Positions 5,265 through 41,366 of a stretch of 64,000 bases of DNA are shown in pieces (within the stretch, counting starts at the first letter, position 1; every line of letters starts with the position of its first letter). Location of the stretch: contig JBAZKP010000001.1 in assembly GCA_041650735.1 (NCBI GenBank), positions 163,076 through 227,075 on the forward strand, in the 5' to 3' direction. A program made the translations under genes and the position numbers. The notes beneath the pieces were generated by a model. It saw only the letters and a program-made list of their open reading frames with translations, made no database searches and was not told where the DNA came from. This DNA is from an archaeon (GTDB lineage Archaea > Iainarchaeota > Iainarchaeia > Iainarchaeales > JAAZKV01).

Positions 5265-5678
5265 ATGGGAAAACTTTTTTCCGTAAGAGTAAGGAAACGA
5301 ATTCCAGTAAATCTTTCTGCAAAGAATTCACATATAAGAAAACTAATCCGCACCTCAGAAAGGCAAACAGGATGGAAAGCTTTACACTCAAGACCTGTAA
5401 TGAGCGAAAAAGAACAAGCCATTTACCAAGATACAAAAATTACAAGAAAACTAATAAGAATATGCACGGGAAAAGCCCTTGATAATGAAGTAATTTATGA
5501 TAAACAAAAAAGAGCAAATATTCAAAGAGCAATGCAAACCTATGTCAATGCAAAAAATATTGAAAAGCAAAACACAGCGCTAAAAACAATACTTAAAGAA
5601 TTGGGCAGTGAGGCAATGTACAGGGATTTCTTAAAAAAAGTTCACATTGCACAAATTGAAAATCTAAGAAAAATGTGA
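5265..5678 (+). CDS. Hypothetical basic protein
   Basis: 137-aa ORF placed tightly between rfcS and the HAD gene, with a 4-nt overlap downstream. No family recognised and the start is uncertain. Confidence 0.35.
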   Translation: MGKLFSVRVRKRIPVNLSAKNSHIRKLIRTSERQTGWKALHSRPVMSEKEQAIYQDTKITRKLIRICTGKALDNEVIYDKQKRANIQRAMQTYVNAKNIEKQNTALKTILKELGSEAMYRDFLKKVHIAQIENLRKM

Positions 5679-6365: not shown

Positions 6366-7637
6366 TCAAAACCACTGATTAATTCTTGTCTGTGATTTAA
6401 AATAAGTTATTAAAGCAGATTTCTTTTTGTACTGCTCAATAGGCACAGTTAGTTTTTTTGATAAAAAATCAAGCGCAAGATCAAAGTTGGAAAATTCTAA
6501 TGGTTTTTCTTTTAACGCAGCACGCACATTCTCTCTAATCTGCCACACCCCAAGAGGAACCGCATAATCTTTCCCAATTTCCCTAAAAACAATCGCAGCA
6601 GCATTAAGTTTTTTCCCATCCAAGTACTCAACAATAGCCAAACGGGAAGCAAAATATGCTCCCTCAGTTTCCTCAGGATAACCCTTTAACCCTGCATTTA
6701 ATTCATAATCCGCCCCAATAGTATACTTTGTTGCGCCCTGTGTCCAAATTCCTCCTGGAAGCCAGCACTCTATTTGTTCAAAACTCCAAGGATAAGGCAT
6801 CAACAAAACCCAAAAATCATTATCAAGGTATTTAGAGTGAAATAACTTAAAACAATCAATAACCTTGTTTTGCGGAAGCCTCTCTTCAATAAAAAATTTT
6901 GAAATATTTGAGTCAACAGCAGTAATACTCCATCTTGTTGGAACAAGTTTCCTGTTCTTTTTTACTCCAAGAGCTCCTGAAGAAAGGACTTTTGCTAAAG
7001 TAGAAACAGGAAAACCTTTTTTGAACAAATCAATTAACGCAGTATTTGATTTAACCGCAGTATCAGAAACATAATAATCAATTTCTTTAGGAATTTTAGG
7101 ATTCTCAATCATCTGTAATTTATCAAGCTTTGCTGAAGGACCTAATGGGGCGGAGAAAGAATCAAAAGAAGTTTCGCTTCTAGGTTTCTCTGCAAGCTTA
7201 ACCTCAAGTTCAAACAAATTAGAAGCCATAGCAACTTCTTGAAACTCCATTAACTCATAATTAGGATTAGAGGCAAGCGAAACAGGAATTGTTTTATAAC
7301 TCCTCAGTAAAGATTCGCGAAAAGAAATTATTTGCTCCTGAGGCAACCCATACCATTTCTCAGGCAAATCACTCATCTCACTAACCTCATTAGGAAGAGC
7401 TGAAAGCGGAGCAACCGCAACTTTCGGATAATTCTGCCAAGAAACAAAAAAACCAGGAGGAGAAGCACCAACAAAATCCGTTCCAACCATAGAAGAAACA
7501 ATTTTTGTGCTACTAAACTGCTTCTCAAGAATAGGGCACTTAGACAAGCCACACAAAAGCTTACCCTTACACTTAATACACAATTCAGGAGAAATCACAA
7601 AACCAACTTCAAAAACAAAAGTATTAATGTTCTTCAA
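6366..7637 (-). CDS. Nre-like archaeal DNA-repair-associated protein (DUF650/DUF651-type), tentative
   Basis: N-terminal Cys cluster CIKCKGKLLCGLSKCP and a ~420-aa size fit my recollection of archaeal Nre proteins. Not verifiable here. Confidence 0.45.
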   Translation of the reverse strand: MKNINTFVFEVGFVISPELCIKCKGKLLCGLSKCPILEKQFSSTKIVSSMVGTDFVGASPPGFFVSWQNYPKVAVAPLSALPNEVSEMSDLPEKWYGLPQEQIISFRESLLRSYKTIPVSLASNPNYELMEFQEVAMASNLFELEVKLAEKPRSETSFDSFSAPLGPSAKLDKLQMIENPKIPKEIDYYVSDTAVKSNTALIDLFKKGFPVSTLAKVLSSGALGVKKNRKLVPTRWSITAVDSNISKFFIEERLPQNKVIDCFKLFHSKYLDNDFWVLLMPYPWSFEQIECWLPGGIWTQGATKYTIGADYELNAGLKGYPEETEGAYFASRLAIVEYLDGKKLNAAAIVFREIGKDYAVPLGVWQIRENVRAALKEKPLEFSNFDLALDFLSKKLTVPIEQYKKKSALITYFKSQTRINQWF

Positions 7638-7729: not shown

Positions 7730-8098
7730 ATGAGTTTTGGCGATTTTGCTAGAGAAGCTAAGAAAAACACTCCTCAAAGAATACCATCAGGAAAACCTGA
7801 GAACCTTGTTGAAGCAGCAGAAAGCCAACCAGCACAAAAAAAAGATATTTCTTACAAAGACTCTGAAATCAAGGGATTCGTGCCACAACAAAGAACCAGC
7901 ATGTCAAGAAAAAATATTGATTCAAGATGCGGAAGCATAATAAGAAACATTGCTTCAGAATCAAACATACGCTCCCAAACAGGGGGAGAAGCAACATGGG
8001 AAGAATGCAGGCACAGAAAAAACAGTAATGGCAGAGATTTCTGCTCAGAATACCATTCATTATGCGCAAAAGAAAATTGCCGAAAAGCGCGAAAATAA
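7730..8098 (+). CDS. Hypothetical protein with C-terminal four-Cys motif (paralog A)
   Basis: 122 aa with a charged, probably disordered N-terminal part. C-terminus reads WEECRHRKNSNGRDFCSEYHSLCAKENC, shared with the next gene. Confidence 0.55.
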   Translation: MSFGDFAREAKKNTPQRIPSGKPENLVEAAESQPAQKKDISYKDSEIKGFVPQQRTSMSRKNIDSRCGSIIRNIASESNIRSQTGGEATWEECRHRKNSNGRDFCSEYHSLCAKENCRKARK

Positions 8099-8125
8099 TT
8101 TTCTAAAATCGAGGGTGATTAAAAA

Positions 8126-8590
8126 ATGGCTTTTCAAACACTTGTAGAGGATTCAAGAAGAATGAACGCAAAAATGATTGCAATGGGGCAAAGCATTGAT
8201 ATCCAAAAAATGCCTCGACCAAAAGCAGGAACGGTTTCAGCCAGAAAAGCTACTTATACTCCTGAAGGGAGTGATGTTGAAAAAATGCTTTACCCAAAAA
8301 ACTTTAAAGCAAGAACATACGAAGAAGAACCGCAGAAAAAACTTGAAACAGTAAACCCGGAAATGGTAAAAGAAATACAAGAACAGGTGCAAGAACCTGC
8401 AAAAATAATTGGTGATGATGAAGTAATAGTTAATCCAAAACAACAAGAAAATGAAGAGACCCTAGAAAAACCTTGTTTAGGGCCAGTATGGCAAAGATGC
8501 AGGCACTACAAAGCACAAGGCGAAAGAGCCTTTTGCAGAGAATACTTAGGCTGGTGCGCAAAAGAAAAGTGTTCTAGACCAAAACTGTGA
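8126..8590 (+). CDS. Hypothetical protein with C-terminal four-Cys motif (paralog B)
   Basis: 154 aa. C-terminus VWQRCRHYKAQGERAFCREYLGWCAKEKC aligns residue-for-residue with paralog A. The N-termini are also similar (MSFGDFAREAKK vs MAFQTLVEDSRR). Confidence 0.55.
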   Translation: MAFQTLVEDSRRMNAKMIAMGQSIDIQKMPRPKAGTVSARKATYTPEGSDVEKMLYPKNFKARTYEEEPQKKLETVNPEMVKEIQEQVQEPAKIIGDDEVIVNPKQQENEETLEKPCLGPVWQRCRHYKAQGERAFCREYLGWCAKEKCSRPKL

Positions 8591-8803
8591 AGCCACTACG
8601 CACTATCAAAGATAGTGCATGAGTCAATCGTCTGGTCATGGCGAAACAGGACCGCAAAAGAAAAATGCTCAAGGCCCTCCCCATAAAACAAACCTTATCC
8701 TATTCAGGAAAGTACAGCAAACTTAAGCAAGTATATAAAAATAAACGACAATCGTCCAACCTAATTAGTTGCTTTAAAAACATTTAGCATAAAAAAATCC
8801 ATT

Positions 8804-39749: not shown

Positions 39750-41366
39750 TCAGGCAAAAGCCCGGTAAGTTTTCTTTTGAACTGACTTAAAAGAAACAAT
39801 TTCCGGCTGAGGAAGCTTTGTTTGCTCTGAAAAATCCTTGGCAAGCTTCAAAGAAGAAAACCCTTTTACTGAAGCAAAACTCTTACCCGCATGCAGAACA
39901 CGATAACCATTTTTTTCTGAAAATTCTTTGAACTTTGCAATAGTTGCTTCTTGAACAGAAACAATGTTTTTTGCCAAAGAAGTTGAAAAAAACTTTGAAT
40001 TAGAATTCGTTAACTGAGAAGGAAGCTCGGACAAAACCTGGGAAAGCACAGAATACATCGCTTTTGAATAAAAATAACCAAAACTCTTCTGTGAAACAAA
40101 ATCTTTTTCAAAAAAATCAATAACCTTACGAAAAGCAAATAATTTATTATTAGCCAAGCGAACCTCCTTTGAAAAAAAACTCTCTTTATTCAAGCAAAAC
40201 CAGTTAAGTTCATGAACAGAAACAGGAATTGAATTATTATCAGCTAAAGAAGAATTCTTGCTTTGAAGAACCTGTTTTGAAGAAACAAGAACCGCTTTTT
40301 CCCCTTCAACCAAGCGTTTTGCATCCATCAAAGGAACCAACGCAAAATCATCCCTAAAAAAAGGGCCAACAGGAAAAGAATTCAGGAAAAACTCTTTTCT
40401 TTTTGAAACACGCTGGTCCTTAAAAGGCATTGAATTGTGAAAATTCATTGCAAAGTTAGAGGAAGATGATTCAAAAAACAAATTATCCTCCTTAAACTGA
40501 ATCTTAATCATGGAAGAAGGCAACAAATTTCTTGCATCAAGCACAACAGGGGAACAACAAGAACAATTCTTTGTTTCAGGACCAATATTGAAAAAAGTAT
40601 TTGAAAATAGTTCCGCCCAAACAAGAGAAAAATCAATTTTTGAAGTAGCATCATATGAAAAAGGAGAATAATCTTTTTCTGAAAAAAACTTTTCGCCGGA
40701 ATCGAAAGAAAGCATTTCCCCGTGCTTGAAAAAAACGTTCTCTAAAAATAACTCAACACGCTCTTCTTTAGTTAAAGGAATTTTTTCTATGGGGAGAGAA
40801 AGAACCTCAGACCAAGCTGCTTGTTCAACCAAAAACAAAGAATCCTGCTCACTTAACCTCAAGGCTTGGGGAAAAGAAATTTCTTTAATAAGAAAAAAAC
40901 TAAGATCTTTAGGAGAAGAACCTTGAGGGTTATGGCTAGTATTAACCATTAAGAAACCTTGTTGTTCAAAAGAATCAAAATAACTCCAATTTCTTTCCAA
41001 TAAAAATGCTCTTTGTGGTTCAAGCACCAAAGGCTTTTTGTTCAAATACAGGGAAAGCGCATTACTGATTTTTTTTAATTCAGCAAAAGAAGAAGCGTGA
41101 AGATACAAAAGATTATTTTTTTCAGAAATATTAAAACCTTTAAAACCAAGGGAAAGAATTAATTCAATTAATTTCTCACTTGAAATGGAAGAAGAAAACA
41201 AAGCAAGAGGGTAAAACTTGTACCTTTTAACAACCCGCTCCCCCTTATTTGAAAACTCAGTAAGTATCTCTGCCTTTGGCTCATTATAAGAAACCCTTGT
41301 TAGATAAATGGGTTTATTCGCAACGCTAACCGCTTGTGCGGAGCTAACCATGCTGTGTTGAGGCAT
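39750..41366 (-). CDS. Truncated, probably catalytically inactive family-B DNA-polymerase-like protein
   Basis: Motif-level similarity to Pyrococcus-type PolB. N-terminal YKFYPLALF and LEPQRAFLLERNW. Motif A region IDFSLVWAELFSNTFFNIGPET. Motif B KSFGYFYSKAMYS. Motif C EKNGYRVLHAGKSFA, where DTD is replaced by GKS. No recognisable exonuclease motifs, and the protein ends ~35 aa after motif C. Confidence 0.45.
   Translation of the reverse strand: MPQHSMVSSAQAVSVANKPIYLTRVSYNEPKAEILTEFSNKGERVVKRYKFYPLALFSSSISSEKLIELILSLGFKGFNISEKNNLLYLHASSFAELKKISNALSLYLNKKPLVLEPQRAFLLERNWSYFDSFEQQGFLMVNTSHNPQGSSPKDLSFFLIKEISFPQALRLSEQDSLFLVEQAAWSEVLSLPIEKIPLTKEERVELFLENVFFKHGEMLSFDSGEKFFSEKDYSPFSYDATSKIDFSLVWAELFSNTFFNIGPETKNCSCCSPVVLDARNLLPSSMIKIQFKEDNLFFESSSSNFAMNFHNSMPFKDQRVSKRKEFFLNSFPVGPFFRDDFALVPLMDAKRLVEGEKAVLVSSKQVLQSKNSSLADNNSIPVSVHELNWFCLNKESFFSKEVRLANNKLFAFRKVIDFFEKDFVSQKSFGYFYSKAMYSVLSQVLSELPSQLTNSNSKFFSTSLAKNIVSVQEATIAKFKEFSEKNGYRVLHAGKSFASVKGFSSLKLAKDFSEQTKLPQPEIVSFKSVQKKTYRAFA

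Follow-up and report, generated by a model that had tools for sequence, protein, structure and literature searches.

Within a 64,000-nucleotide (nt) window of contig JBAZKP010000001.1 (positions 163,076 to 227,075; the window is the whole stretch that was analysed, with a G+C content of 34.6%), from a tiny archaeon of the DPANN phylum Iainarchaeota, two neighbouring genes, here called A and B, are, to judge from alignment and phylogeny, tandem duplicates that arose within one lineage and partitioned between them the peptides of a single ancestral gene. Both proteins end in a module of about 30 residues with the four-cysteine (Cys4) pattern W-x2-C-x11-C-x6-C-x4-C. On balance, the pair is best explained as belonging to an undescribed Iainarchaeota family whose proteins would combine an N-terminal helix, a disordered body bearing motifs and a zinc-stabilised C-terminal module, with the duplication and partition just mentioned. 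An original prediction, made from the letters of the window, had described two adjacent genes of 122 and 154 amino acids (aa) here, and proved accurate in coordinates, lengths and sequences:

7730..8098, plus strand: gene A, the A-type paralogue of the Cys4 family, 122 aa, isoelectric point 9.5 (open reading frame (ORF) with full-length homologues)
8126..8590, plus strand: gene B, the B-type paralogue of the Cys4 family, 154 aa (ORF with full-length homologues)

Judged by their homologues, A and B are real, conserved genes, with a conservation well in excess of chance. The relatives of A (n = 31) are 41-85% identical to it across its full length, those of B (n = 65) are 40-84% identical and cover 99-100% of its length, and homologues of the two share contigs, where they lie side by side. 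As part of the same overall explanation, we consider it somewhat probable that both genes, which have the look of expressed ones, are under purifying selection. The gap between them being only 27 nt, A and B probably form one transcript, the 3' end of which may be marked by a hairpin that starts 10 nt past the stop codon of B; a Shine-Dalgarno-like sequence ends 6 nt upstream of the ATG of B. Both signals were read from the sequence. Among public sequencing runs, none of RNA was listed for this locus, and the one DNA run with a near-identical match comes from a landfill metagenome, probably the sample from which the window derives. The two signals are:

8111..8119, plus strand: Shine-Dalgarno-like sequence GAGGGTGAT
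8600..8618, plus strand: perfect 8-bp hairpin GCACTATC-AAA-GATAGTGC

When A was compared with B by BLASTP, only the C-terminal 33 residues aligned (45% identity; E = 1e-9). This match, the merged alignment of the family and its tree together bear out the proposal that the genes are tandem paralogs. The Cys4 modules common to the two proteins lie as follows:

7997..8095, plus strand: Cys4 module of A, W90-K122, W-x2-C93-x11-C105-x6-C112-x4-C117, then the basic tail RKARK (alignment)
8489..8587, plus strand: Cys4 module of B, W122-L154, W-x2-C125-x11-C137-x6-C144-x4-C149, then the tail SRPKL (alignment and AlphaFold2)

In the alignment of A homologues, W90, C93, K97, C105, C112 and C117 are invariant; in that of B homologues, W122, K129, C137, C144 and C149 are invariant and C125 nearly so. 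The 11/6/4 spacing of the cysteines, which had been read correctly in A and B, is kept in 152 of the 156 family members, most of which also carry a tail of 5 residues after the last cysteine, and the charge of the module is basic (+4 to +6; about +4 net in A). The consensus string first proposed for the two C-termini stands in its spacing apart from one miscount (R-H-x8-F-C, not x9), while the RH, F, EY and AKE that it treated as invariant hold only among close relatives: family-wide, only the W, the four cysteines and one lysine are invariant.

The earlier statement that this motif matches no zinc-finger or iron-sulphur (Fe-S) motif that could be named agrees with the outcome of searches of Pfam, NCBIfam, PADLOC, PHROGs, the PDB and Foldseek. 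Neither A nor B matched any entry in Pfam or NCBIfam, the same libraries gave only noise, and no Fe-S family, for 95 close members at E ≤ 10, and the distant members had no matches in the family libraries. PADLOC returned a single sub-threshold match (PDC-S06 on protein P0054; E = 0.0012, 15.5 bits), PHROGs gave matches only at E ≥ 0.047, and PDB sequence profiles yielded nothing meaningful with either full-length or domain-only alignments; a profile match to CWC15 (E = 0.085) was discarded, as it falls in a low-complexity linker. A viral or defence origin was also dropped, since the PADLOC and PHROGs matches were all sub-threshold and no relatives were found among the viral contigs of IMG/VR. 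A search of the literature found nothing on this Cys4 family. Neither of the two outcomes named beforehand as speaking against the prediction, namely assignment of the motif to a known zinc-ribbon or HiPIP family and lack of conservation outside this genome, was observed.

Modelling of the domain, which had been put forward with the original prediction, gave three short beta strands. In the AlphaFold2 model of B, built on a 64-sequence alignment, the body is of low confidence and largely unstructured, residues 2-19 form an N-terminal helix, and the Cys4 module is the sole part modelled with confidence (predicted local distance difference test (pLDDT) 82-85; strands 128-131, 134-137 and 142-144); a domain-only model (48 sequences) has the same three-strand topology (pLDDT 67). 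The top Foldseek neighbours, all non-significant, were a BED finger, a [4Fe-4S] small subunit, eS31, a TnpB finger and PHF5A, all of them Cys-rich metal mini-domains, which is a hint at the kind of domain and nothing more. From these models, the likeliest fold of the module is a small beta unit of three strands, with one metal bound to its four cysteines to hold it together. Given the size of the domain, its beta-hairpin character, the nature of its weak structural neighbours and the lack of an Fe-S signature, that metal is quite probably zinc.

The alternative that the four cysteines hold a [4Fe-4S] or [2Fe-2S] cluster, so that the proteins would be redox- or O2/NO-sensing regulators or electron carriers, is unlikely. 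It draws on the four invariant cysteines without a CxxC knuckle and on one of the non-significant Foldseek neighbours, 2y8n_B (E = 5.8), the [4Fe-4S]-binding small subunit of a glycyl-radical enzyme. The HiPIP signature is C-x2-C-x~16-C-x~13-C and that of ferredoxin-type proteins CxxCxxCxxxCP; the spacing in the Cys4 family differs from both, and no Pfam or NCBIfam match to either appeared at E ≤ 10. To our knowledge, the 11/6/4 spacing fits no known cluster motif at all (ferredoxin, HiPIP, Wbl or EndoIII-type). Moreover, a beta mini-domain of 30 residues with a Lys/Arg-rich surface is more typical of zinc fingers, and no redox partner genes lie nearby in the loci examined.

Slightly less likely again is that the family belongs, much diverged, to one of the known classes of zinc finger (zinc ribbons or the RNA-binding CCCH-like fingers); because the domain is so short, such a finger would escape both sequence and fold searches. 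Three short predicted strands are what zinc ribbons have, and with the archaeal small zinc-finger or C4 ribbon proteins (haloarchaeal CPxCG mu-proteins, Rpo12 and Spt4-type) the family shares small size, a four-Cys domain of about 30 residues, predicted beta strands and a basic surface. In contrast to C4 ribbons, its four conserved cysteines form no CxxC or CPxCG knuckle, its domain ends a long disordered arm that bears motifs, and no significant sequence or fold match to a zinc-ribbon family was found in Pfam, NCBIfam, the PDB or Foldseek. As to CCCH fingers (C-x4-15-C-x4-6-C-x3-H; zf-CCCH_8 and ZAP finger 3), the likeness lies in the long knuckle-less spacing (x11 and x6 fall within the general CCCH range), in a G before the second cysteine, and in aromatic and basic residues conserved between the ligands; zf-CCCH_8 was also the commonest sub-threshold Pfam match, found on the Cys module of 16 of the 95 close members (best E = 0.41). 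This match, however, reaches just 10.3 bits where the cut-off is 34.6, and the fourth ligand is in all members a Cys after x4 and not a His after x3. CCCH fingers are, besides, essentially eukaryotic and viral, and they are poor in beta structure, in contrast to the three strands predicted for the Cys4 module.

The body that precedes the module had been described as charged and probably disordered. Disorder is indeed predicted, but the body is no mere charged spacer: the near-invariant short linear motifs within it argue that it is functional. Together with the N-terminal motifs, they are placed as follows:

7730..7768, plus strand: N-terminal motif of A, MSFGDFAREAKKN, a family-wide motif (merged alignment)
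7844..7885, plus strand: A-specific motif DISYKDSEIKGFVP, residues 39-52 (A-homologue alignment)
7931..7957, plus strand: GSIIRNIAS motif of A, residues 68-76 (alignments)
8126..8164, plus strand: N-terminal motif of B, MAFQTLVEDSRRM, the start of the predicted helix of residues 2-19 (alignment and AlphaFold2)
8174..8224, plus strand: B-specific near-invariant peptide MIAMGQSIDIQKMPRPK, residues 17-33 (64-sequence alignment)
8288..8305, plus strand: B-specific LYPKNF, residues 55-60 (64-sequence alignment and AlphaFold2)
8405..8419, plus strand: IIGDD motif of B, residues 94-98, the counterpart of the h-I-D-x of distant members (NLIDAT, IIDGE) (alignments)

That A and B are similar in their first residues, as originally noted, reflects a family-wide motif, M-[APSG]-[FL]-x2-h-h-x2-[AS]-[KR]-[KR], present in 131 of the 156 members and continued in the wider family as -N-x-P; the conserved patterns are MAF..VED.RRMN in B and M.F.D....AKKN in A. 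Ten positions of MIAMGQSIDIQKMPRPK are invariant in the 64 sequences (M17, M20, G21, Q22, S23, I26, Q27, P30, R31 and K33), as are L55, Y56, P57, N59 and F60 of LYPKNF, the surrounding block 51-60 being modelled with a pLDDT of 78. In IIGDD, I95 and D97 are conserved in at least 90% of the 64 sequences, and G96 is nearly invariant in a 20-sequence subset. The near-invariant peptides of A, besides its N-terminal pattern, include HGSIIRNIASES and DISYKDSEIKGFVP, in which Y42 and P52 are invariant and D39, I40, S41, D44, S45, E46, I47 and G49 nearly so. The GSIIRNIAS motif has counterparts in HCNIIKNVV of single-copy B-like genes and in GSI[IV]KK[IV] of distant members, by which comparison it is ancestral. 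The distant members have one or more h-I-D-x motifs (NLIDAT, IIDGE or IIGDD), which can be repeated (IIDGE occurs twice in P0120), and often GSI[IV]KK[IV].

The distribution of these peptides follows the copy number of the gene. In all genomes with two copies (13/13), the HGSII motif is present in A and absent from B, and B has MGQSxDIQKxPRPK, LYPxNF and IIGDD, the first two of which A lacks. Single-copy relatives of 170-194 aa possess, in the merged alignment, the B-type peptides together with DDRHCNIIKNVV, which aligns with the A motif HGSIIRNI; both motif sets occur in the single-copy B-like genes of three species, at loci L004 (where just one gene lies between Nre and the threonyl-tRNA synthetase, ThrRS), L027 and L031, as well as in a split gene of L007. 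In the maximum-likelihood tree, (i) the A-type genes form one clade (support 97/95), (ii) A-type, B-type and B-like single-copy genes together form another (95/94), which nests among the single-copy genes of other Iainarchaeota, and (iii) the B side is weakly resolved (81/94). The motif distribution is what one would expect if a tandem duplication occurred first and the two copies then lost linear motifs in complementary fashion, and a single-copy A-like gene in L028 indicates that one copy was subsequently lost in some lineages. The paralogy noticed at the C-termini and first residues therefore stands, but it extends further than was claimed, since A and B also partition the motifs of one ancestral gene. 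Such a partition between tandem paralogues would be a clean natural case of subfunctionalisation in a disordered protein, and it shows which peptides are separate functional units.

The split gene is a single-copy B-like gene divided into overlapping ORFs of 92 and 95 aa (L007:5001-5526; also in L008 and L025). The split falls at a run of ten A's (about 5267-5276), and the 92-aa product is recorded from several sources, on 16 contigs in all; a fixed frameshift, homopolymer slippage or a recurrent assembly error could account for the split. Methyltransferase and AAA genes occupy the place of Nre at these loci (L007).

As far as could be seen in the sequence collections searched, the family is found only in Iainarchaeota. 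A profile of A and B compared with 1.84 billion representative proteins retrieved, at E ≤ 1e-3, 75 clusters, the proteins being with few exceptions 78-240 aa long, and four scans of species-representative genomes with subfamily alignments gave 33 loci, including the complete AR10 genome. Most of the informative titles among these loci are Candidatus Iainarchaeum, ainarchaeum or Forterrea, and many further loci are titled only "archaeon" or "uncultured archaeon". A third, word-indexed homologue search with a broad alignment added no members to those known. The family is present in every Iainarchaeota lineage sampled. As to the distribution across DPANN genomes, which had been suggested for checking, conservation outside this genome was found, and members were found in Iainarchaeota only. 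That the family is both undescribed and restricted to the phylum is, as one element of the overall explanation, a little better supported than its opposite. DPANN archaea have tiny genomes with a large share of lineage-specific genes of no assigned role, and a strongly selected family of proteins that are easy to express (80-200 aa) offers a tractable entry into biology specific to this phylum; its knuckle-less C-x11-C-x6-C-x4-C module would be a new entry among metal-binding mini-domains.

Three metagenome-assembled genomes (MAGs) titled Chloroflexi/Chloroflexota or Falkowbacteria (L041, L042 and L044) contain an archaeal block with HerA, Cys4 and Rad50-like genes, to which L044 adds a dead PolB-like gene. 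In the tree, the Cys4 proteins of these MAGs fall among those of Iainarchaeota, and these are probably mis-binned contigs or mislabelled MAGs. Protein P0109 (238 aa), in which a truncated RmlD/epimerase N-terminus (Pfam RmlD_sub_bind, 4-173 of 287) is followed by an HCNII motif and a Cys4 module, is probably no genuine fusion of domains but a gene call that is chimeric or frameshifted, and was dropped as a functional clue.

At the other extreme of interpretation, the cysteines might form two structural disulfides without metal, or the proteins might be fast-evolving lineage-specific filler without a specific role; we regard this as very improbable. The proteins are small and mostly predicted to be disordered, as it would have them. 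Neither a signal peptide nor a transmembrane segment was found in the sequences of A, B or the distant members, however, and disulfides in the cytoplasm are uncommon among mesophilic anaerobes; strong selection is indicated by peptides that stay near-invariant in more than 60 sequences and by retention in every lineage sampled.

Under the zinc-module explanation that we prefer, each protein would have three parts: an N-terminal amphipathic helix motif, a disordered body with linear peptides, and the Cys4 module with its short basic tail. One ancestral gene would have held all the peptides and then been duplicated in tandem in the lineage of the window, after which A would have kept HGSIIRNI, carrying also DISYKDSEIKGFVP, and B would have kept MIAMGQSIDIQKMPRPK, LYPKNF and IIGDD. 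The basic Cys4 knob may anchor the protein to nucleic acid or to a fixed partner, and the linear peptides may recruit other proteins, so that the protein would act as an adaptor or hub. In this it resembles disordered hub or adaptor proteins such as the small PCNA-interacting proteins of archaea, with which it shares invariant short peptides between variable, low-confidence linkers, motifs that can be repeated or partitioned between paralogues, and genes beside RFC and the PCNA-binding Nre. It differs from them in that no member has a canonical PCNA-interacting protein (PIP) box and no motif matches a described one.

The neighbourhoods of the family fall into three lineages, and the first includes the window, where the gene divergent from A is:

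6366..7637, minus strand: archaeal Nre, a putative DNA-repair protein with a PIP-box C-terminus (Pfam Nre_N, 1e-83; Nre_C, 6e-33)

This divergent arrangement, with a 92-bp gap in the window, is kept in 18 non-redundant loci, where the order is RFC small subunit ... Nre (minus strand), A, B, ThrRS and the T2SSE/T2SSF pilus locus; the window itself also has ProRS. In a second lineage (6-7 loci), a Rad50-like SMC_N gene lies close to a block in the order NurA, HerA, Cys4 gene and a gene for about 500 aa. The product of this last gene is homologous to the dead PolB-like gene of the window (39750-41366; 30% identity, E = 2e-68), which is unrelated to the Cys4 family and in the window lies 31 kb from A and B, although in this second lineage it directly follows the Cys4 gene, which itself follows herA. 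The Cys4 members of the HerA lineage (L011:4875-5216, L040 and L043) have an additional peptide at the C-terminus, FMEANFFDFKKYLK, which the window copies lack.

Association with DNA-repair genes is thus seen in two of the three lineages, which is suggestive. Since the gene adjoins Nre and RFC in one lineage and stands between HerA-NurA and the dead PolB-like gene in another, DNA repair or replication is the most likely field of action, a proposal we make only tentatively. Its bolder form, that Cys4 is a new nucleic-acid-binding finger, that the family is an Iainarchaeota organiser of DNA-break repair, attached to DNA by its basic finger and joining HerA-NurA, the dead PolB-like protein and Nre/PCNA by means of its invariant peptides, and that the duplication split recruitment into two adaptors, is doubtful; were the link to HerA-NurA, dead PolB and Nre true, it would point to a phylum-specific DNA-repair assembly.

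Several observations weigh against our interpretation. The neighbours in the third lineage, which includes the complete AR10 genome, are unrelated and variable (M32 peptidase, LemA, phytoene synthase, Pus10 and lipoyl synthase), so that there is no universally linked partner; within each lineage the whole block is syntenic, and the adjacency may therefore be merely inherited; and ThrRS and the type IV pilus locus lie just as near to the gene. The domain-only model, moreover, was only moderately confident. Finally, a scan for the canonical PIP box (Q-x2-[ILMV]-x2-[FWY]-[FWYLM]) found it in none of the family members (0/158), where shuffled sequences would give 2.1, and the idea that these are PIP-box proteins was rejected. 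The Nre of the window (minus strand, 6369-6392) itself ends in KSQTRINQWF, in which QTRINQWF is a canonical PIP box (Q-x2-I-x2-W-F).

The position of the genes also raises the possibility that the proteins act with downstream genes, as a scaffold or cofactor of ThrRS/ProRS or as an accessory or regulator of the Epd/Tad-type pilus ATPase. A-B lies directly upstream of ThrRS, on the same strand, in 13 loci, in the 5 loci without ThrRS it is followed at once by the pilus genes T2SSE/T2SSF, the ATPase gene coming first, and a distant member (L013) lies among MetRS, ThrRS, AspRS and class Ib aminoacyl-tRNA synthetase (aaRS) genes. We nevertheless find this improbable: between B and thrS there are the hairpin and a gap of some 210 nt, the nearest relatives of L013 (L046 and L047) do not share its adjacency to ThrRS, which weakens ThrRS as a conserved partner, and members of the HerA and AR10 lineages have no aaRS or pilus genes nearby.

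The member in L013 (L013:4025-4645; P0124, 206 aa) is very divergent and may be a third paralogue type and not an orthologue of A or B; the ThrRS at this locus is 74% identical to that of the window. Among close relatives, the ThrRS downstream of A-B is of two very different types at one syntenic position, being 74-85% identical to that of the window in L001, L004, L013, L019, L020, L022 and L028, and just 48-57% identical in L005, L007, L015, L027, L029 and L030. Comparison of L015:6902-8398, where the gene is split (521 and 73 aa), with L001:6779-8467, the neighbouring Nre being 85% identical in both, suggests in-place replacement of thrS by a xenologue. LAGLIDADG homing-endonuclease inteins are present in the HerA of some Iainarchaeota relatives (1121 aa; L011:1351-4716 and L040) and absent from the HerA of the window, and an intein likewise interrupts the pilus T2SSE ATPase of L004 (990 aa; L004:9154-12126), the window ATPase being free of one.
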